Both the position numbers and the translations under genes were made by a program. This document shows positions 7,701 to 62,509 of a stretch of 64,000 bases of DNA, one piece after another; positions within the stretch are counted from its first letter, which is position 1; each line of letters opens with the position of its first letter. This DNA comes from Minisyncoccota bacterium. GTDB taxonomy: Bacteria; Patescibacteriota; Minisyncoccia; Phycocordibacterales; PALSA-1337. The stretch spans positions 23,037 to 87,036 of the forward strand of contig JBAZBL010000001.1 of NCBI GenBank assembly GCA_041671485.1, read 5' to 3'. The notes under the pieces were generated by a model. That model was given only the letters and a program-made list of their open reading frames with translations. It was not told the origin of the DNA and did not search any database.

Positions 7701-7756
7701 CGGTAGTATACACCCATGGGGTGGGTGTAGTCCGGGTTCGACTCCCGGCAGCCCGA
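7686..7756 (+). tRNA. tRNA-Pro (anticodon GGG), atypical D/anticodon junction (71 nt, no encoded CCA)
   Basis: Perfect 7-bp acceptor CGGGCTG/CAGCCCG with discriminator A. D arm GTAT/ATAC with loop AGCGGTAGT. T arm CCGGG-TTCGACT-CCCGG. Anticodon hairpin CACCC-[ATGGGGT]-GGGTG gives U33-GGG-G37. The stretch between the D stem and the T stem is 2-3 nt shorter than canonical, so the fold is non-standard. Confidence 0.55.
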
Positions 7757-7773
7757 AGGGATGAAACAAGTCG
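7739..7773 (+). repeat. 35-bp direct repeat copy 1 (tRNA-Pro T-loop/3' end plus 17 nt of 3' flank)
   Basis: CGACTCCCGGCAGCCCGAAGGGATGAAACAAGTCG, identical to 7874-7908. Confidence 0.9.
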
Positions 7774-7873
7774 CTAATGCGACTTGTTTAGGGAGGCGAA
7801 AGGGTTTTCGATGTTTGCGAGGACGAGCTTGTCGAGTCCAAGCAAACCGAAAACCACCTGGCGACGTAGTCGC

Positions 7874-7908
7874 CGACTCCCGGCAGCCCGAAGGGATGAA
7901 ACAAGTCG
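7874..7908 (+). repeat. 35-bp direct repeat copy 2 (displaced partial tRNA-Pro 3' end); a third degenerate fragment GTAGTCCGAC at ~7925-7935
   Basis: Exact 35/35 match to 7739-7773. It is preceded by GTAGTC...GCC, which mimics the tRNA variable-loop/T-stem region with a deletion. Confidence 0.9.
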
Positions 7909-11419: not shown

Positions 11420-12382
11420 ATGATCAATCAACTTGTAAAATATATGCATCCATTTGAAAAAATACTAAGTGTTTCAAAAGAAAATATTGTTCTTGAAATA
11501 AAAGGCTTTTCTGATTTACCATGGGTAGATTTCTTACTTAATCCTCGCCGTTTAAGAGGTAGCGACTTCTTGATGCGATGGTCACAGGGGGTTTGGAGCG
11601 AAAATCGTCTTATTGAAGCGATAAATGAAAGCGGGAAATATTTTGCCGTTCCTTATGGTCCGAGCGGAACTGCCCCAACAGACGATGTACGGGCATTTGA
11701 ACTTTATTTTGAACGTTTAGAGAAAGCAGGTCTTGGTCATATAAAAAGACCAGATTTACTTGTATTCAAGAAAACAAACGAGAAAGCAGTGAGCAAGATT
11801 CTAAAAAATATTGGCGGAATACAAGAATTGCCTTTTACAGAAGAAAGTAAGCTTGATGGATTGCTTAAGATGGCAACGGTGGCAGTAGAATGTGAAAACA
11901 GTCTATGGAAATCAAAGAAAATGCCTGATTATGAAACTCTTCTTACACCACAGAAAAGATTAAACGGTCAGTTTGGATTGAAGAAAACAGCTGTTTTACC
12001 AACTGTAATCATTAAAGAAGAAGACCGAGAACCTCTTAATAAGTGGCAGGAAAATAATAAAGTACTGATTCATGTGTGGCATGTATTTTACGACCAAGCA
12101 TTTGGTATTCCTCTCAAAGAAGTGGAACGGTTGATCAGTAATGGTCTTATTCAGCCGACGATTCAAACATTTCAGGCACCCGGCGGAGCAACGACAAAGA
12201 AAGCCATATACAAAATCTATTACCGTTATGCCTATCCACTTGGTGACGCTATAGAAGAACCTACGCTTATTTCAGATTGTATTGAGGACAAGAATGGACA
12301 CATTTTGCCGTATGTTAAATTCCATGGAGGTAAGTTAAGACTTAACAATGAAGCTATTAAAGTCCTGGATTCAATTTTATGA
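11420..12382 (+). CDS. Putative type II restriction endonuclease (uncharacterised family), translationally coupled to downstream N6-adenine methyltransferase
   Basis: 320-aa ORF with no recognisable family. Its TGA stop overlaps the ATG of the methylase (ATGA). There is a possible PD-(D/E)xK-like 'RPDLLVFKK'. The call rests on genomic context. Confidence 0.4.
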   Translation: MINQLVKYMHPFEKILSVSKENIVLEIKGFSDLPWVDFLLNPRRLRGSDFLMRWSQGVWSENRLIEAINESGKYFAVPYGPSGTAPTDDVRAFELYFERLEKAGLGHIKRPDLLVFKKTNEKAVSKILKNIGGIQELPFTEESKLDGLLKMATVAVECENSLWKSKKMPDYETLLTPQKRLNGQFGLKKTAVLPTVIIKEEDREPLNKWQENNKVLIHVWHVFYDQAFGIPLKEVERLISNGLIQPTIQTFQAPGGATTKKAIYKIYYRYAYPLGDAIEEPTLISDCIEDKNGHILPYVKFHGGKLRLNNEAIKVLDSIL

Positions 12383-13890
12383 AAAGAATTATTCATCAAA
12401 AATTACCATCTCAACACAATGAGAGAGAAAGACTTAGAGATAAGGGACAATTTTGGACTCCGAGCTGGGTTGCTGATGCAATGGTTGCTTATGTGGCCAA
12501 AAATGCCGATCTTGTCTTCGATCCCGGAGTTGGTAAGGGTGTTTTTTATAGCTCGCTCAAAAAGATTAATCCGAAAATTAAATTCTACGGTACGGATATT
12601 GACCCAAATATTATTACTGATGCAAAAGCTGAAGGTATTTTTGATGATAATGCTCATCTCGAGATAAGAGATTTTATCCTCAATACTCCAAAGAAACTAT
12701 TCCGAGGTATTGTCGCAAATCCACCTTATATACGCCATCATCGTCTGTCACAAGAATATAAAGAAAAATTTAAAGCAATAAGTATACGGTCAATGAATGA
12801 CACACTCGATGGTCGCGCTGGTTTGCATATTTATTTCCTTATTCAAGCTCTAAACTTACTCGATAAAGGTGGTAGACTTGCTTTCATTATGCCAGCAGAT
12901 ACATGTGAAGGCATATTTTCAAAAAAGCTTTGGGATTGGATTTCAAAAGATTTCGCCATTGATGGTGTAATAACTTTTGACCATAAAGCTACACCTTTCC
13001 CTGGTGTAGATACTAATGCAGTTATCTTTTTAATCCGCAAAGACAGTCCAATAGAAAAAATAAAGTGGATTAAATGTTTGGAGCCAGAAACTACTCAATT
13101 ATTGAGTCTTATAAACGATGATTTCAAAGACGATAAGTTTTCTGATCTAGTTATCTATGATAGAGATTTAGAAGAAGCAATCTCGACAGGCTTGTCAAGG
13201 GCACCACAGGATAGAAAATTTGAATTCACTTTGGTCGATTTTGCAAAAGTAATGCGTGGTATCGCTACAGGTGCTAACGAATTCTTTTTTCTCACAAAGA
13301 AAAAGGTGAAGGAACTTAAGATTCCCGATAAATTCTTTCTTACAGCAGTTGGTCGGACACGCGATGCTGAGGGGTCTTATATTACAAAAGAAACTCTAGA
13401 AAAATTGGAAAGAAAAGGGAGGCCTACGCTTCTGTTTTTTCCTAATGGGACTGATTGGAAAAATATGCCTGATTCAGTTAAAAATTATATTATAGAGGGT
13501 CAGAAAATGGGATTGTCTAATCGCGCGTTGATTTCAACAAGACAACCTTGGTATAAAATGGAAGTTAGAGAAAAACCAGTATTTTTATTTGCTTATCTTG
13601 GTAGAAGAAATGCGCGGTTTATAAAAAATGAAGCAGGGATTATTCCACTCACTAGTTTCCTTTGTGTATATCCCCATTCAGATAATAAGGAATATATTGA
13701 TAAACTATGGGGAGTTTTACAACATCCAGATACAATCTCAAATTTGCAACTAGTTGGAAAATCTTATGGTTCTGGAGCAATTAAAGTTGAGCCTCGGTCA
13801 TTAGAGAGATTACCTATAAGTTCTAAAATTATTAAGGAATTTGGTCTAAATCCTATTAAGTTGGGATTATCTTTGTTTACACAAACATAG
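12379..13890 (+). CDS. N6-adenine DNA methyltransferase, gamma-class (Eco57I/TaqI-like), type II R-M
   Basis: Motif X 'GQFWTPSWVADAM', motif I 'FDPGVGKGVF', motif IV 'NPPYI' (NPPY), and a C-terminal target-recognition region. Confidence 0.85.
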   Translation: MKRIIHQKLPSQHNERERLRDKGQFWTPSWVADAMVAYVAKNADLVFDPGVGKGVFYSSLKKINPKIKFYGTDIDPNIITDAKAEGIFDDNAHLEIRDFILNTPKKLFRGIVANPPYIRHHRLSQEYKEKFKAISIRSMNDTLDGRAGLHIYFLIQALNLLDKGGRLAFIMPADTCEGIFSKKLWDWISKDFAIDGVITFDHKATPFPGVDTNAVIFLIRKDSPIEKIKWIKCLEPETTQLLSLINDDFKDDKFSDLVIYDRDLEEAISTGLSRAPQDRKFEFTLVDFAKVMRGIATGANEFFFLTKKKVKELKIPDKFFLTAVGRTRDAEGSYITKETLEKLERKGRPTLLFFPNGTDWKNMPDSVKNYIIEGQKMGLSNRALISTRQPWYKMEVREKPVFLFAYLGRRNARFIKNEAGIIPLTSFLCVYPHSDNKEYIDKLWGVLQHPDTISNLQLVGKSYGSGAIKVEPRSLERLPISSKIIKEFGLNPIKLGLSLFTQT

Positions 13891-19196: not shown

Positions 19197-22100
19197 ATGA
19201 TACACATGAAAAAGAAGACATACGGAGGTCAGACCTCCGGAGACAAATCAAAAGAATATAGTCCCTCTTTGATTGAAAATAAATGGCAAAGAAAATGGAA
19301 ATCTTCCAAGCTTTTCAAGACAAAAGAAGATACAAAGAAAGATAAATATTATATTCTAGACATGTTCCCATATCCTTCTGGTGAAGGACTTCATGTCGGG
19401 CATCCCAAAGGCTATATAGCGACCGATATAGTATCACGATACAGGAGAATGAGTGGGTACTCGGTTCTGCACCCTATGGGTTTCGATGCTTTCGGACTTC
19501 CTGCAGAGAATTATGCTATCCAGATGAAGACGAACCCAGCTATTGCAGTGTCTCAGAATGTCAAAAGATTCAAGAAGCAACTAGAAATTCTTGGCTTTGA
19601 CTATGATTGGTCTCGAGAAGTGAATACTACAGATCCAAAATACTATAAATGGACGCAATGGATCTTTCTACAACTTTTGAATAAGGGTCTAGCTTATGAA
19701 TCATATGAGCCGATAAACTGGTGTCCTTCTTGCAAAACTGGTTTGGCAAATGAAGATGTCGATGATGGTAGGTGCGAGAGGTGTGGTACTCCTGTAGAGA
19801 AGAAGCCGATGAGACAATGGGTCTTGAAGATCACTGATTATGCAGGAAGGTTGCTTGAGGATTTGGATGTAAAGAATAATGATGATAAACCCTTACTCGA
19901 CTGGCCGGAATCGATCAAAGAGGCTCAAAGGAATTGGATAGGGAGGAGTGAGGGAGCGGAGATAAAATTTCAAATTTCAAATTTCAAAGGTCAAAAATTA
20001 GAAAAGAACATAAAAGTCTTCACCACCCGCCCTGACACCATATTCGGCGTGACTTATTTGGTATTGGCACCAGAGCATAGATTGGTCAAAGAACTTTTGC
20101 CATTGGTTGAAAACAAAAAGGAAGTTGAGGAATATGTTGGTCGTGCCAAGAATGAGACCGAAATAGAGCGCACTGATGCCAAGAAAGAGAAGACCGGCGT
20201 TGAGATGAAGGGTATCAAGGTGATCAACCCCGCAAATAGAGAAGAGATACCTGTTTGGATAGCAGATTATGTTCTTGCCGACTATGGTACAGGCGCCGTC
20301 ATGGCTGTACCCTCACACGATGAGAGAGATTGGGATTTTGCGAAGAAGTTCGACTTACCGATAAAGCAGGTCATTGCACCTTACTTCACAGACAATCCTG
20401 GAAGTAAAGATGCTGTTAGAGATAATAAGAAAACAGTAAAAAGAAAGACTGCATATGCTCTTGTCTTTGACAAAAAAAATGATAAATTTTTATGCTTGAA
20501 TTGGGAAAAATTTGGTTGGCACTCTGGGATCATTGGTGGAGTTGATGATGGTGAAAGTTTCAAAGATGCAGCTTTACGAGAAATAAAAGAAGAAACTGGT
20601 TATAAAAATTTAAATTTGATCAAGAAATTGGGAGGTGAGCAACACAATCATTTCTTTGCTACTCATAAAGATGAAAACCGATATGCAATTGGCCATGGCA
20701 TGCTTTTTGAACTTGTGAATGATGAAAAAGAATTGGTTCTCGAAGAACATAGTTTAAACCATAAACCTGTGTGGATTGATATGGATAAAATGGAAGACTG
20801 GCTCAATTTGTCAGCTTTTAAATATATGTGGAAAGCTTACAAATCTAATTCGGATTGTTTTACTGGATATGGTAGGTTGTTAAATTCTGAGAAATTTGAT
20901 GGGACAGAAAGTAAAGATGTGATGAAAGAGATTACAGATTTTGTCGGTGGTCAGTGGGTCACAAAGTATAAACTCCGAGACTGGGTATTTTCTAGACAAC
21001 GGTATTGGGGCGAGCCGATACCTGTAATACATTGCACAAATTGTTTTGCAAAAGAGAATAAAACAAACGCAATTATTTTGCATGGCTGTCCTTCGAATGT
21101 TGAAAGAGCGATGGATCCTAAAAGACAAACATATGATAAACATTGGATACCATGGACAAAGAAACAATTAGAAATAGCAGGTATTGAGACACTAGTGCCA
21201 TTGATGCCAGAACCATGGCATATGTCATATGAAAAATGGAAGATAGAATTTGATAAATTACCGATAACTGAAAATAGTATTCTAATAGGACATAGTTGTG
21301 GATCTGCTTTTCTGGTTAGATGGTTGGGAGAGACAAAGAAAAAAGTGAGGATGCTTGTCTTGGTTGCACCTTGGAAAATAAATAGTAATAATGATGAATT
21401 TAGAAATAAATTCTATACATACACTATTGACAATGAAATTAAAGACAAAATAAAAAATATCTTTATCTTTACATCAGATGATGAGGAGGATAATGGAAAG
21501 AAAAGTGTCAATATCTTCAGAGAATCTTTGAATGCAAAAGTAATTGAATTAAAAAAACATGGTCATTATATTTACGGTGATATGAAAACAGAAGAATTCC
21601 CTGAATTAATAAATTTGATAAGTTCGTTTTCTTCCAAAGTAGTACCAGTTCCCGAGAAAGACCTACCAATAAAACTACCCAAAGTAAAATCCTATGAACC
21701 CACAGGAACAGGCGAATCGCCACTCGCTAATATAGACAAATGGGTCAATGTAAAGTGTCCAAAGTGCAAAGGTAAAGCCAAAAGAGAGACAAATACAATG
21801 CCACAATGGGCTGGCTCGTCTTGGTATTATTTGCGATATGAAGATCCAAAGAATAAAAAAGCATTCGTTGACACAAAGAAAGACAAATACTGGTCACCAG
21901 TTGACCTCTATGTAGGCGGAGCAGAACATGCCACGCGCCACCTCATATACGCTCGATTCTGGCACAAATTCTTGTACGATATAGGCATAGTCTCAACCAT
22001 CGAACCATTCATCAAACTTCAGAACGTAGGACTCATAATAGGTGAAGATGGAAGGAAGATGTCAAAAAGATTTGGTAATGTTGTCAATCCTGATGAAATT

Positions 22101-22802
22101 GTCGAAATATATGGAGCTGATACACTCCGAATATATGAAATGTTCATGGGTCCATTTGATCAACAGATCGCTTGGAATACGAACAGTATGGTTGGTTCTA
22201 GGAGATTTATCGAAAAAGTTTGGAGACTAAATAATAATCTAAAGACGAATAGAGGATCGACCGTCGCAGGGGCGACAAATGGCGACTTGGCGAAGCCAAC
22301 GAAGGCATTTAGTCGCCCCGAGGAGGGAGATCCGTATTTAATTTTGATTGATAAAACCCTTCACAAAGCAATTAAAAAGGTAACCGAAGACATTCAAGGA
22401 CTAAAATTCAATACTGCATTGAGTACACTTATGATTGCTGTGAATGAAATGGAGTCTTCGGGATCGGTGACTAGAGAACAATTCGAAATATTACTGAAAC
22501 TGCTAGCACCATTTGCTCCTTATGTAACAGAAGAATTGTGGTCTGGACTTGGTAATAAGAAATCGATACATATATCAGAATGGCCAGAGTATGATCCGAG
22601 CCTAATAGTTGATAATGAAGTAAAAATCATTGTTCAAGTGAATGGCAAGGTTCGTGGTTCATTTGACGCTGATCCAGATATAAATGAAGAAGAAATGAAG
22701 AAGAAAGCGCTCAATCTACCTGAAGTGAAAAAGTGGATTGATGGCAATCAAATCAAGAAAGTGATCGTCGTTAAAAGTAAGTTGGTGAGTTTGGTGGTTT
22801 AA
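19197..22802 (+). CDS. leuS: Leucyl-tRNA synthetase with two embedded extra domains (NUDIX hydrolase; alpha/beta serine hydrolase) and one in-frame palindromic element
   Basis: 1201 aa, versus ~800-880 typical. HIGH motif 'PYPSGEGLHVGHPKGY'. KMSKS motif 'KMSKRFGNVV'. 'YKLRDWVFSRQRYWGEPIP'. C-terminal anticodon-binding domain. The NUDIX box is 'GGVDDGESFKDAALREIKEETG'. A GxSxG hydrolase nucleophile 'IGHSCGSAF' lies within the insertion. Confidence 0.9.
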   Translation: MIHMKKKTYGGQTSGDKSKEYSPSLIENKWQRKWKSSKLFKTKEDTKKDKYYILDMFPYPSGEGLHVGHPKGYIATDIVSRYRRMSGYSVLHPMGFDAFGLPAENYAIQMKTNPAIAVSQNVKRFKKQLEILGFDYDWSREVNTTDPKYYKWTQWIFLQLLNKGLAYESYEPINWCPSCKTGLANEDVDDGRCERCGTPVEKKPMRQWVLKITDYAGRLLEDLDVKNNDDKPLLDWPESIKEAQRNWIGRSEGAEIKFQISNFKGQKLEKNIKVFTTRPDTIFGVTYLVLAPEHRLVKELLPLVENKKEVEEYVGRAKNETEIERTDAKKEKTGVEMKGIKVINPANREEIPVWIADYVLADYGTGAVMAVPSHDERDWDFAKKFDLPIKQVIAPYFTDNPGSKDAVRDNKKTVKRKTAYALVFDKKNDKFLCLNWEKFGWHSGIIGGVDDGESFKDAALREIKEETGYKNLNLIKKLGGEQHNHFFATHKDENRYAIGHGMLFELVNDEKELVLEEHSLNHKPVWIDMDKMEDWLNLSAFKYMWKAYKSNSDCFTGYGRLLNSEKFDGTESKDVMKEITDFVGGQWVTKYKLRDWVFSRQRYWGEPIPVIHCTNCFAKENKTNAIILHGCPSNVERAMDPKRQTYDKHWIPWTKKQLEIAGIETLVPLMPEPWHMSYEKWKIEFDKLPITENSILIGHSCGSAFLVRWLGETKKKVRMLVLVAPWKINSNNDEFRNKFYTYTIDNEIKDKIKNIFIFTSDDEEDNGKKSVNIFRESLNAKVIELKKHGHYIYGDMKTEEFPELINLISSFSSKVVPVPEKDLPIKLPKVKSYEPTGTGESPLANIDKWVNVKCPKCKGKAKRETNTMPQWAGSSWYYLRYEDPKNKKAFVDTKKDKYWSPVDLYVGGAEHATRHLIYARFWHKFLYDIGIVSTIEPFIKLQNVGLIIGEDGRKMSKRFGNVVNPDEIVEIYGADTLRIYEMFMGPFDQQIAWNTNSMVGSRRFIEKVWRLNNNLKTNRGSTVAGATNGDLAKPTKAFSRPEEGDPYLILIDKTLHKAIKKVTEDIQGLKFNTALSTLMIAVNEMESSGSVTREQFEILLKLLAPFAPYVTEELWSGLGNKKSIHISEWPEYDPSLIVDNEVKIIVQVNGKVRGSFDADPDINEEEMKKKALNLPEVKKWIDGNQIKKVIVVKSKLVSLVV
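19223..19239. repeat. Palindrome CGGAGGTC-A-GACCTCCG (family also at 49341 and 51121)
   Basis: Perfect 8-bp arms. It lies at codons 9-15 of the leuS ORF. Confidence 0.8.
19965..19985 (+). repeat. Heptanucleotide tandem repeat (AAATTTC)x3 inside leuS
   Basis: AAATTTCAAATTTCAAATTTC. The same heptamer, x4, occurs at the 5' end of the M23 peptidase gene. Confidence 0.85.
22254..22333. mobile_element. GC-rich palindromic miniature element (family A) inserted in-frame in leuS
   Basis: GGATC...CGTCGCAGGGGCGACAAATGGCGACTTGGCGAAGCCAACGAAGGCATTTAGTCGCCCCGAGGAGGG...GATCC. About 93% identical to the infB copy (44490-44576) and the topA copy (40424-40530, reverse complement). It encodes 'STVAGATNGDLAKPTKAFSRPEEGD' within an otherwise AT-rich gene. 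Confidence 0.75.
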
Positions 22803-30918: not shown

Positions 30919-31002
30919 GCGCAGGTGGCAGAGTGGTCAATTGCAGTGGACTGTAAATCCATCGCCCTATGGGCTCCGGGGGTTCAAATCCCTCCCTGCG
31001 CA
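30919..31002 (+). tRNA. tRNA-Tyr (GTA), class II with long variable arm
   Basis: Acceptor GCGCAGG/CCTGCGC with discriminator A. Anticodon arm GTGGA-[CTGTAAA]-TCCAT. Variable hairpin GCCC-TAT-GGGC. T arm GGGGG-TTCAAAT-CCCTC. Confidence 0.9.
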
Positions 31003-31012
31003 CATGAAAAAA

Positions 31013-31032
31013 CCGAGCAAAGCTCGGTTTTT
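31013..31032 (+). terminator. Rho-independent terminator CCGAGC-AAA-GCTCGG-TTTTT immediately after tRNA-Tyr
   Basis: 6-bp GC stem followed by a T5 tract. Confidence 0.7.
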
Positions 31033-31187
31033 GAGTGGACGCAGAGCAAAGCGCTTGAGCGCTTTGCGTGGAGGGATTTGAAAAGGTCGAGCATATTTTC
31101 GAACCTGAGCGAGCGATCAGCGAGTCGAAGGTGAGAAAATGCGAGACCTGTACAGAGTCTGTAAGACTCAAATCCCTCCCTGCGCAC
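31033..31187 (+). mobile_element. tRNA-3'-end-associated miniature element (copy 1), ending in a 20-bp duplicate of the tRNA-Tyr 3' end
   Basis: The direct repeat TCAAATCCCTCCCTGCGCAC occurs at 30984-31003 and 31168-31187. The left arm ACGCAG-[GC hairpin AGCAAAGCGCTTGAGCGCTTTGC]-GTGGAGGGATTTGAA is antisense to the tRNA 3' end. A ~60-nt core GAAAAGGTCGAGCATATTTTCGAACCTGAGCGAGCGATCAGCGAGTCGAAGGTGAGAAAATGCGA is ~97% identical to 43378-43438. Confidence 0.7.
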
Positions 31188-31219
31188 AAAATTTTACGTC
31201 AAGGTTAGTTCTTGCTGTA

Positions 31220-37196: not shown

Positions 37197-37514
37197 TTAT
37201 GCAAATCCAACAACCTCTTTCTGAATTCTCCTGGCATAACTAATATCTTTTAAACTTATTCTCCAAGCTTTCTTGATAAAACCATGAACAATGTATGCTT
37301 TATTATTCTGGAATACGTACAAGATTCTTATTTGATTTTTACCAAGAGTTCTAAGTTCAAATAACCCCTTACCCAGACTTTTAGAATCAGGCATCCCTAA
37401 TAAATATCCGAATTTTTCCAGAGAATTTACTGTCTTTTTTATGCGGGAGGATGTGATCTTGTCTAGACCATTTATAAATTCTCGCACTTTTTCATTCCAA
37501 TAAATTATTTCCAT
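37197..37514 (-). CDS. RelE/HigB-type toxin (Gp49-like, DUF891 family)
   Basis: 'GLFELRTLGKNQIRILYVFQNNKAYIVHGFIKK' matches the Gp49/HigB family pattern. It lies upstream of an XRE antitoxin, the reversed HigBA order. Confidence 0.7.
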   Translation of the reverse strand: MEIIYWNEKVREFINGLDKITSSRIKKTVNSLEKFGYLLGMPDSKSLGKGLFELRTLGKNQIRILYVFQNNKAYIVHGFIKKAWRISLKDISYARRIQKEVVGFA

Positions 37515-37598
37515 ATCCGCATAATACATCACACATAAGAAAATGCAAAAAGATGGCATTGAATGACTGTGTCCACTTTATGGGGTACAGATCAATTG

Positions 37599-43083: not shown

Positions 43084-43220
43084 CTGCGAATTTTGCATAA
43101 GCGTAGCGAATGGCAAAATTCAGCATCCTCTCGAAGTTCGATCCGCCAGCTGGCGGAGAGGGACGAAGCAGGAATTAGTATTAATTTTTGATCTTTGATT
43201 TTTAATTTTTGACTTAATAT

Positions 43221-43304
43221 GCCCGGGTGGCGAAATTGGTATACGCGCAAGACTTAAAATTTTGTAGCCGTAAGGCTGTGTGGGTTCGATTCCCACCCCG
43301 GGCA
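43221..43304 (+). tRNA. tRNA-Leu (TAA), class II
   Basis: Acceptor GCCCGGG/CCCGGGC with discriminator A. Anticodon arm CAAGA-[CTTAAAA]-TTTTG. Variable hairpin TAGCCGTAAGGCTG. T arm TGGGT-TCGATTC-CCACC. Confidence 0.85.
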
Positions 43305-43486
43305 CACTAAAAAATATATAATGATAGACTTATTTGCCCGGGAGCAAGGTGCATTTGCACCTTGCGAGTGAGAATCGAAAAGTCTGAGCATATTTTCGAA
43401 CCTGAGCGAGCGATCAGCGAGTGGAAGGTGAGAAAATGCGAAGACTATACCGTTCCAGTATGGAAAGATTCCCACCCCGGGCACAC
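43305..43486 (+). mobile_element. tRNA-3'-end-associated miniature element (copy 2), ending in a 20-bp duplicate of the tRNA-Leu(TAA) 3' end
   Basis: The direct repeat GATTCCCACCCCGGGCACAC occurs at 43288-43307 and 43467-43486. The left arm TTTGCCCGGG-[GC hairpin AGCAAGGTGCATTTGCACCTTGC]-GAGTGAGAATCGAA is antisense to the tRNA 3' end. The ~60-nt core at 43378-43438 is shared with the tRNA-Tyr copy. Confidence 0.7.
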
Positions 43487-43502
43487 TTGATCTGTACCCC
43501 AT

Positions 43503-61608: not shown

Positions 61609-61843
61609 ATGGGTATTATAGCAAGAAAGTATATGAATTTCTTTATGCTAGAGTTATCAACAACAAGTAAATTTGACTATATATATCCAATTTGTTAGTC
61701 TTTAATTAGAAGTATGCAATAATAACTTACGAGGTGCTCCGATGTTCCCTCAGAATATCTGGGGCTTGAGTTGGAGAACACCACCTTGTGAGACGCTACT
61801 TCTAACAAAGAACCCCTTTCCACTTCGGTCAGGGATTTTTTGT

Positions 61844-62509
61844 TTATATTATAATCGATTTTCCATTGAACAATTCCCTCCCCTTTCCAATAATATTTTT
61901 CTTCAGAATTTTGAAACATTCCTCACCTAGTTTTCCTTTTTCAAGATATCGTGCCAAAGCTCCTGCAATCCAGTCGGCAATTTGAATATTCACTACCGCA
62001 GTTGAATCAACCATTTCAATTTGTAAAACTACACCCTTTGGCAAGGATGGTAACAGACGAGCTTTTAGGACTTCCTTGAATTCTGTCTCGGACATACCAC
62101 TCAATCTTCTACGGTCGCAGAAAACACGAAACTCTTTATCAGTTGTCGGTAAATATGATGTTAGTATTTCGCCGACTATATTTGTATATAAAAGTCCGCT
62201 CTGTAATTTATTTTTATGATGATACTCTGCTGGAATATTTCTATGAAGTAAATAGGCAAAATGTATTCGAACATCTAGTTTTGAAATCTCTCTCAAAGTC
62301 TTTAGGCGTAAGGCATCAGAAAATCCGGTACTTGCCCATTTAATCTCACTCAGATCACGCATCTTTCTAGGAAAATGGCCACGAAGCCATGCTCGAAATC
62401 CCTTTGCTGTTCGCCGAACATTGCCAACAGTAAATGAAGCAACAATAAAATAGTTTTTATTACTGTACTTGGAAAATTGTCCACTTTCATCAAGAAAAAT
62501 ATATGGCAT
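61844..62509 (-). CDS. DUF3800-family protein
   Basis: N-terminal 'YIFLDESG' and C-terminal 'IQIADWIAGAL' match the DUF3800 signature motifs. Family membership is recalled from memory. Confidence 0.6.
   Translation of the reverse strand: MPYIFLDESGQFSKYSNKNYFIVASFTVGNVRRTAKGFRAWLRGHFPRKMRDLSEIKWASTGFSDALRLKTLREISKLDVRIHFAYLLHRNIPAEYHHKNKLQSGLLYTNIVGEILTSYLPTTDKEFRVFCDRRRLSGMSETEFKEVLKARLLPSLPKGVVLQIEMVDSTAVVNIQIADWIAGALARYLEKGKLGEECFKILKKNIIGKGRELFNGKSIII

Follow-up and report, generated by a model that had tools for sequence, protein, structure and literature searches.

Structured cassettes with split antisense arms behind tRNA genes of Patescibacteria: candidates for base-pair-targeted insertion elements

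Why is the 3' end of a tRNA gene repeated, letter for letter, about 160 nt further downstream, and what is the DNA that lies between the two copies? The question is raised by the tRNA-Leu(TAA) gene (43221-43305, + strand; predicted by ARAGORN and by the Rfam tRNA model, 60.2 bits) in a 64-kb stretch of DNA, termed the window in the following. The window is chromosomal, of low GC content (37.5%) and occupied by housekeeping genes, and the best matches of its alanine racemase (Alr) are named Patescibacteria or Paceibacterota; to judge from the sequence, its source is a Patescibacteria/Paceibacteria-type bacterium. The region directly 3' of the tRNA gene is a non-coding cassette of about 180 bases, and it belongs to a family of structured cassettes behind tRNA genes which is real, widespread and apparently undescribed. 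In this work, we describe the cassette and its relatives and weigh the explanations available for them, the favoured one, to which we assign a probability of roughly 0.5, being that the cassettes are non-autonomous insertion elements which are targeted by base pairing and served by an enzyme acting in trans.

The tRNA-Leu(TAA) gene does not encode CCA, the discriminator A being followed directly by CAC. The 20-mer GATTCCCACCCCGGGCACAC, reported in a preliminary description of the locus as a direct repeat with a spacing of 159 bp, matches the window at exactly two places (43288-43307 and 43467-43486) versus none expected from shuffled sequences, and the repeat is in fact slightly longer, as the identity extends by one base to the 21 nt GATTCCCACCCCGGGCACACT (43288-43308 and 43467-43487); the gap amounts to 159 nt between the 20-nt copies and to 158 nt between the 21-nt copies. 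All features of the cassettes are given on the + strand. The first copy, designated S1 (43288-43308), is the tRNA 3' end itself and reaches from G57 in the T-loop to 4 nt past the discriminator. It is followed by an AT-rich spacer (43309-43332), which in this copy contains no terminator, and by two arms directed against the tRNA end: arm A (TTTGCCCGGG, 43333-43342) is antisense to the acceptor 3' strand and the discriminator and shows Watson-Crick pairing at 8 of 8 positions over GCCCGGG+, and arm B (GAGTGAGAATCGAA, 43366-43379) is antisense to the T-stem 3' strand and the T-loop, with two A:C mismatches to its own tRNA. The arms are separated by H1 (43344-43365), a perfect 9-bp hairpin which splits the antisense at the junction of T-stem and acceptor stem (tRNA positions 65/66), and the claim of an antisense left arm interrupted by a GC hairpin, as in the copy at tRNA-Tyr, is thus confirmed in all three parts. 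The core rod (43381-43446) is closed by the stem AGTCT/AGACT and contains GA, GCAT-AT-TTTC and GA on one strand and GA, GAAA-ATGC and GA on the other, which can be drawn as two tandem G.A loops of the CGAG/CGAG type or, equivalently, as a stem with a U:G pair; a variable apical stem-loop (43400-43429) forms its tip. H3 (43453-43465), a 5-bp hairpin with a GTA triloop and the conserved motif TATAC/TGTAC just 5' of it, precedes the second repeat copy, S2 (43467-43487), which pairs with arms B and A and closes the fold. The flank after S2, TTGATCTGTACCCCAT (43487-43502), begins with a T that is also the last base of S2.

A cassette of the same layout, with a repeat and arms of its own, is found behind tRNA-Tyr (30984-31188), where the 21-nt repeat TCAAATCCCTCCCTGCGCACA (S1 30984-31004, S2 31168-31188) encloses a terminator hairpin (31007-31032), arm A (31040-31044), H1 (31046-31067), arm B (31069-31082), the rod (31085-31148) and H3 (31155-31169). 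The core was correctly described as common to the Tyr and Leu(TAA) copies, but the difference of about 2 nt given for it reduces to a single mismatch, 55 of 56 bases being identical with the long apical loop included; this loop differs in every other genome. Both copies adopt a common closed fold in which the downstream repeat is bound by the arms, H1 branches off at the junction, the T-loop bases pair with arm B, and the rod and H3 are enclosed; compared with shuffled sequences, the folding of the + strand gave z = -8.0 for the Leu(TAA) copy and z = -6.1 for the Tyr copy. A diverged third copy, absent from the preliminary description, follows tRNA-Pro(GGG) (7739-7908; covariance model match 7747-7897, 39 bits, E = 6e-8). 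Its direct repeat of 35 nt (7739-7773 and 7874-7908) runs into the spacer and H1, and an H1-like hairpin (7764-7789), a variant rod and an H3 with GTA loop are present, followed by a partial second unit to about 7950.

Beyond the window, a diverged copy lies behind tRNA-Tyr of a relative with 66% Alr identity (locus L009) and keeps GAGCATATTTTCGA...GAGAAAATGCGA, whereas its apical loop is different. A gapped pattern built from these two blocks led to 23 metagenome loci, about 19 of which hold true copies, each co-oriented with a tRNA and located 60-130 nt downstream of it; the preceding tRNAs are Arg-CCG, Ala-TGC, Leu-GAG, Val-GAC, Val-CAC, His, Ser-GCT, Gly-GCC and Tyr, and the contigs have 44-54% GC. 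A covariance model trained on 20 copies recovered all 20 and found more diverged members, again directly after tRNAs and including the Pro copy; the further genomic copies which the preliminary description had proposed to align now comprise a third one in the window and about 20 elsewhere. The cassette is present on only some tRNAs per genome. Throughout the family the order S1, spacer, arm A, H1, arm B, rod, H3, S2 is fixed, and the antisense split at tRNA positions 65/66, the rod sequence with its two CGAG/CGAG-type loops, the TGTAC motif and the GTA loop of H3 are constant as well; H1 follows the consensus A-GCRnnnnGC-loop-GCnnnnYGC-G. In about half of the copies the spacer is a canonical intrinsic terminator (A-run, GC stem, T-run), whose stem is prolonged by the pairing of the tRNA end with arm A, and a mini-hairpin of the form GA-GC-loop-GC-GA is the other hairpin type found at this position. 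The 5' boundary of the repeat ranges from T54 to G57 and tracks the type of H3.

No description of the cassette family was found in a literature search; a paper on group I introns within patescibacterial tRNA genes (PMC13011429) and one on disrupted tRNA genes of archaea (PMC3293823) concern different subjects. The Rfam 15 search of the whole window at the gathering threshold returned only tRNAs and a DUF3800-V RNA (61708-61803, +; RF02964, 82.6 bits), which adjoins a gene for a DUF3800 protein (61844-62509, -), and permissive Rfam scans of the Leu and Tyr copies gave sub-threshold chance or terminator matches only, in agreement with the earlier statement that the core was not recognised as any known RNA family. 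Phage and plasmid collections searched by BLAST contained no match. A 21-mer taken from the apical loop had a single chance match in a collection with one genome per species, in a high-GC Hyphomicrobium gene; the loop is specific to the genome of the window.

Further tRNA trailers of these genomes follow the same logic of repeat, antisense arm and repeat with an inner module of another kind. In one such second type the inner part is GC-rich (...GAGCCGGGGTCGCGRR...CGTGACC) and is combined with an arm B antisense and a direct repeat of the tRNA end; it was seen behind tRNA-Val-TAC and tRNA-Arg-TCT (L017), tRNA-Ala-TGC (L023), tRNA-Tyr (L021) and tRNA-Val-TAC (L026), and in L023 an encoded CCA lies within the 21-nt repeat. 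In most tRNA genes of the window and the loci the discriminator is followed by C and a non-C base (often CA-A) rather than by CCA, and a minority encode the full CCA. The trailer of tRNA-Cys (43085-43165) holds yet another structured module, the hairpin GAATTTTGC-ATAAGCGTAGCGAATG-GCAAAATTC followed by CGATCCGCCAGCTGGCGGAGAG; the sequence CGATCCGCCGGCTGGCGGAGAG, one base off the latter, forms the motif at the apical loop of the core in L020 and L028, which suggests that small hairpin modules are swapped among trailer elements. Some cassette-free trailers fold back onto the acceptor 3' strand via an extended terminator stem, for example that of tRNA-Gly-TCC in L030.

Covariation within the family is strong. 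In an alignment made by MAFFT, double changes occur at 22 of 36 pairs, and in the model-fitted alignment 26 of the 36 pairs are compensatory, 97.2% of the cells are paired, none of 500 shuffles is as good and slid controls are far off; the MAFFT figure is the more conservative one because the model-fitted alignment leans towards the structure by construction. Compensatory changes affect 8 of the 9 pairs of H1 (99.5% paired), all five pairs each of the closing stem of the rod and of H3, and 6 of the 7 pairs between arm B and S2; helix 4, located within the rod, is nearly invariant. At variable pairs, G:U exceeds A:C by 25 to 5, and one position is G:C in 12 copies and G:U in 10. This excess indicates that the constraint acts on the tRNA-sense (+) strand as a single strand. 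An RNA from the minus strand is rejected on the same count, though the minus strand also folds well, and a protein-coding function is rejected in view of the overlap of the open reading frames (ORFs) covering the element with the tRNA (e.g. 43254-43502, -) and by core lengths which differ between copies by non-multiples of three.

The specificity of the arms was assessed by comparing the joined reverse complements of arm B and arm A with 28 candidate tRNA 3' ends. For 16 of the 17 copies, the best or tied-best match was the adjacent tRNA or its isoacceptor counterpart from another genome, so that the supposition that the arms always match the neighbouring tRNA held with one exception. Arm A complements the 3' strand and is not a copy of the tRNA 5' half; at the position of the G3:U70 pair of tRNA-Ala, for instance, the arm of the Ala copy forms A:U. 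In the exceptional locus, L018, the cassette lies behind tRNA-Val(GAC), although its arms and S2 are matched to tRNA-Leu(TAG); only GCACAAAA (8 nt) is common to cassette and site, and the cassette occurs there in tandem. In arm B of the Leu(TAA) copy both A:C mismatches sit exactly where tRNA-Leu(CAA) has T, which makes this arm a hybrid of the Leu(CAA) and Leu(TAA) targets. The preliminary description regarded the conserved core with tRNA-matching ends as a targeting module with programmable or tRNA-templated specificity. The combination of core and matching ends was recovered at no fewer than nine tRNA kinds, and the idea of a targeting module is plausible, but for the specificity a slow process fits better than reprogramming at each insertion: to judge from the lineage-specific arms, the mosaic modules, the misfit arms of L018 and the hybrid arm B, the arms and S2 appear to be retargeted by mutation or gene conversion rather than by templated rewriting per event.

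Several observations bear on the question of whether the cassettes were inserted. The 16 nt TTGATCTGTACCCCAT behind S2 match the trailer of the unoccupied tRNA-Leu(CAA) gene (37580-37595, -), with two matches in the window versus 0.04 expected; S2 and its flank thus have the appearance of a normal tRNA-Leu end into which the cassette seems to have been inserted. The motif itself may be a trailer, processing or terminator signal. In a relative with 87% Alr identity, tRNA-Tyr is without cassette, and the gene downstream of it also differs. Short-read contigs of the same species, found via exact-protein look-ups, break inside the core, as is expected of a repeated sequence. Head-to-tail arrays sharing one repeat are present in L034, L018 and the Pro copy of the window, and truncated, 5'-deleted or tRNA-less copies in L022, L026, L020 and L028; L025, too, holds a truncated or decayed copy. 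Modules, namely the types of H1, closing stem, apical loop, H3 and spacer, are reshuffled among copies; the Tyr copy of the window, for example, resembles the Tyr copy of L009 throughout except for the apical loop, which equals that of the Leu copy of the window. L017 and L031 possess identical tRNA-Leu(GAG) genes, and their cassettes differ compensatorily in the terminator stem and in two H1 pairs; the similarity ends exactly after a stump of S2 of 10 nt, beyond which the flanks are unalignable.

Taken together, these features are most readily accommodated by a family of structured cassettes of about 150-190 nt without a protein which insert, or once inserted, just 3' of the last ~21 nt of tRNA genes. 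The two arms around H1 would constitute a split guide complementing the sense strand of the tRNA gene end, the rod with its tandem G.A motifs and the GUA-triloop hairpin may be conserved recognition modules, and S2 would be the cassette's own sense copy of the target, carried at its right end. In the single-stranded tRNA-sense form, be it RNA or single-stranded DNA (ssDNA), the arms could pair with S2 to give a compact multi-branched fold or alternatively with the target S1, which would place the target end beside the left end of the cassette. Insertion would take place at the DNA level through a single-stranded intermediate, and joining at the 3' edge of S1 would leave the order S1, spacer, antisense, core, S2 with an intact tRNA, for which many copies supply a terminator; as the target is regenerated by such an insertion, head-to-tail arrays are explained. 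In the free form S2 and the start of the spacer might abut on arm A as in a nicked hairpin, which could be sealed to a circle or joined to S1, and this geometry would account for the frequent complementarity of arm A to the first bases of the spacer as well. A more far-reaching version, which we consider rather unlikely, sees in the cassettes the non-autonomous representatives of an undescribed kind of insertion system guided by nucleic acid, in which a conserved scaffold of H1, the tandem-G.A rod and the GUA hairpin would recruit the enzyme, the split guide of ~20 nt would read one strand at the tRNA end, and the cassette's own copy of the target would mask the guide until strand exchange. 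In that case the specificity could be redirected through changes in the arms and S2, as is suggested by the occurrence at no fewer than nine tRNA kinds.

The insertion-element reading has to cope with a number of points that weigh against it. Among the 49 ORFs of the window, Pfam identified no transposase, integrase, HUH nuclease or reverse transcriptase, no gene for such an enzyme is adjacent to any copy in the fetched loci, and no autonomous version was found, scans of viral contigs with three patterns giving chance matches or nothing. An empty tRNA-Leu(TAA) site was sought in a relative of 86-88% identity via IF2 and the neighbouring methyltransferase; no clean pair of occupied and empty sites with alignable flanks was obtained, since the contigs of relatives stop before the site. 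The folded single strand may be RNA or ssDNA. Copies at the same tRNA (Tyr in the window and L009; L017 and L031) keep the structure although their flanks are unalignable, and such retention with compensatory changes is compatible with a host function under selection as well. Several old copies have an S2 shortened to about 10 nt, which is paired with arm B alone, while the match of arm A to the tRNA persists, from which it follows that a complete S2 is unnecessary for persistence. The retained copies fit either a structure selected in place or one refreshed by gene conversion from active relatives, and with gene conversion, the loss of most of S2 would fit as simply preventing deletion by recombination between the repeats.

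The main alternative, possible but on balance doubtful, regards the cassette as a structured trailer RNA that serves the host; it would be transcribed together with the tRNA and set free by processing at the 3' side, with the repeat as a historical trace. Such an RNA could be a stable small RNA or a protein-binding scaffold, or it could control maturation or termination of the tRNA, the arms capturing the tRNA 3' half and S2 acting as anti-antisense. A promoter scan detected none for the element itself, and the constant co-orientation with, and closeness to, the tRNA promoter suits a trailer RNA, as do the very strong covariation, the G:U bias on the strand that would be transcribed, and the invariant rod with tandem G.A motifs and GUA triloop, which resembles a protein-binding RNA. 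The same can be said of the retention with compensatory changes at orthologous tRNAs and of arms that are complementary to the tRNA even where S2 has decayed. In the minimum free energy fold of the full transcript of tRNA and element the pairing is exchanged, S1 being bound by the arms and S2 by the tRNA 5' strand, so that a switch of this kind is physically possible. The canonical intrinsic terminator which about half of the copies have between tRNA and arm A, however, would exclude the greater part of the element from the transcript of the tRNA; moreover, many copies are truncated, tandem, mosaic or, in L018, non-cognate, the tRNA-Tyr of a close relative does without the cassette, and only some tRNAs per genome carry one.

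It is clearly improbable that the cassettes are remnants or mini-versions of integrase-dependent elements, that is, attachment-site (att) cassettes mobilisable in cis, in which a tyrosine integrase would cross over in the T-loop and restore the tRNA with a 3' end brought by the element, the former 3' end becoming the right repeat and the ~160 nt between the repeats being a remnant or minimum of attP. The identity block of tRNA integration of the T-loop type typically spans the T-loop to the tRNA 3' end, about 21 nt, which is just the extent of the repeat observed here; the terminator brought along for the restored tRNA and the flank after S2 resembling the original trailer are likewise in line with it, the flank fitting either model. 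The preliminary description had itself considered att-carrying mini-elements, and as far as the repeats are concerned this is possible, but the internal antisense arms and the strand-asymmetric structure are left unexplained: arms, H1, rod, H3 and a covariation that differs between the strands are not features of double-stranded att sites. An integrase gene is found neither in the window nor near the copies, the 5' boundary of the repeat shifts between T54 and G57 with the type of H3, and independent remnants would not share one architecture at more than nine tRNA kinds. In L018, S1 is the end of tRNA-Val itself, while S2 and the arms are those of tRNA-Leu(TAG), which argues for a joint at the 3' edge of S and not in the T-loop.

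Passive spread by homologous recombination after DNA uptake, for which Patescibacteria commonly encode the machinery, would need no dedicated enzyme, with the highly conserved tRNA gene as left and S2 as right homology arm and the structure selected otherwise, for example for stability of the incoming single strand or for termination. The layout of tRNA, S1, cassette and S2 would suit a drop-in at the same tRNA of any genome, related cassettes do occur at the same tRNA types between organisms whose proteins are about 60-66% identical and whose flanks are unrelated, and module mosaicism shows frequent recombination between copies. It is nevertheless very improbable, since it explains neither the antisense arms nor the arrival at new tRNA kinds within one genome (the Tyr and Leu copies of the window share their core), and since 21 nt is a very short right homology arm and L018 shares only 8 nt with its site.

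Known classes of elements and RNAs were rejected on specific grounds. A classical miniature inverted-repeat transposable element (MITE), derived from a DDE-transposase element, has terminal inverted repeats, whereas the cassette has an A-rich spacer at the left and H3 at the right end, and its repeat is 21 nt long and always a tRNA 3' end instead of a short (2-15 bp) variable target-site duplication. Fragments of group I or group II introns are excluded by the lack of a match to an intron model and by the element's length of only about 160 nt. An H/ACA-like guide RNA would leave a U and one further nucleotide of the target unpaired below the upper stem and have an ACA box ~15 nt downstream, but only 0-2 target bases are unpaired and none is U (CG in L013, none in the Tyr copy), and arm B is followed by GAAAAG with no ACA. 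A trans-type hammerhead is excluded by the single A and G linkers around H1, the lack of CUGANGA/GAAA and the absence of a ribozyme match in Rfam. ARAGORN and the Rfam tRNA model call the true tRNAs only, so no tRNA-like structure or transfer-messenger RNA (tmRNA) is involved. A bridge RNA (IS110) or seekRNA (IS1111), which would have two internal loops reading opposite DNA strands of target and donor and a DEDD recombinase gene beside it, does not apply, as both arms are antisense to one strand and contiguous on the target and the window has no recombinase gene.

Some further genes of the window deserve mention. The leucyl-tRNA synthetase ORF (19197-22802, +; 1201 aa) has NUDIX and serine-hydrolase domains inserted between the synthetase domains, and a likely restriction-modification pair consists of genes for an AccI-like restriction endonuclease and, after it, an Eco57I-type methylase (11420-13890, +). 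A lone gene of the '23S rRNA intervening-sequence protein' family (PF05635; 41875-42246, +) lies between tRNA-Lys and tRNA-Leu(TAG), and a gene of the Gp49/HigB-like toxin family (37197-37559, -) lies directly downstream of tRNA-Leu(CAA); PemK-family toxin genes are located in the corresponding tRNA-rich regions of the relative of 86-88% identity (L036, L038).

What the cassettes mean depends on the reading. If they are mobile, a gene-less element would choose a safe and universal landing site, the end of a tRNA gene, by pairing over about 20 nt, in a phylum which has tiny genomes and few known transposons, and the discovery of its partner enzyme could provide a guided-insertion activity of a new kind. 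As functional trailer RNAs, they would represent a widespread, unannotated class of RNA linked to the expression of tRNAs in Patescibacteria. In both cases, short-read assemblies are interrupted at the cassettes, spurious ORFs arise over tRNA loci, and the second copies of tRNA 3' ends could mislead predictors of att sites and genomic islands.

Among known systems, the elements of the insertion sequence (IS) family IS200/IS605 come close in logic, without any membership being implied. They are strand-specific, have hairpins at their ends, read the target by an internal guide of 4-5 nt beside the foot of a hairpin and insert 3' of a short target motif which remains unharmed, and protein-less derivatives (palindrome-associated transposable elements, PATEs) are mobilised in trans. 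The cassette shares the strand-asymmetric fold and the arms which flank a hairpin, H1, and match the target; its guide, however, comprises about 20-24 nt and is split around the hairpin, a copy of the target of ~21 nt is carried and duplicated, H1 and H3 are unrelated, whereas IS200/IS605 elements have left and right hairpins that are alike and produce no long repeat, and the window has no Y1 HUH transposase (TnpA). Phages of the CTX type (integrative mobile elements exploiting XerCD, IMEX) integrate as a folded single strand, a hairpin imitating the site recombining with the double-stranded site itself, and leave the order target, loop, inverted copy, body, target, with head-to-tail arrays being typical. 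The integrated layout of the cassette is analogous, but its target is a tRNA gene end instead of dif, neither recognisable Xer-type half-sites nor a dif-like motif are apparent by eye, it has ~180 nt without genes, its inverted copy is broken by a conserved hairpin, and no Rep gene is present in the window. With tRNA-targeting integrative elements the cassette has in common that the tRNA 3' end, beginning in the T-loop, is directly repeated, that the tRNA stays intact and that the site is used again; it differs in being 100 times smaller and in having antisense arms, a structure on one strand and, in the window and the loci, no integrase. Variable parts that base-pair with the insertion site within a conserved scaffold are also known from the exon-binding and intron-binding sequences (EBS/IBS) of group II introns and from the IS110 bridge RNA, but the bridge RNA uses two loops and reads both strands, whereas the arms of the cassette read one strand contiguously and its own target copy is carried along, and it has neither an Rfam intron match nor a recombinase or reverse transcriptase gene. 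Miniature repeats of the REPIN/REP (repetitive extragenic palindromic) type, finally, are likewise short, non-coding, rich in hairpins, multi-copy, intergenic and long-lived, and they depend on a trans-acting protein; unlike the cassette, they have no fixed gene target, target-matching arms or repeats. Measured against these systems, the cassette is best classed as a structured repeat or a mobile element that is site-specific and non-coding, and there is an appreciable chance that it represents something newer.

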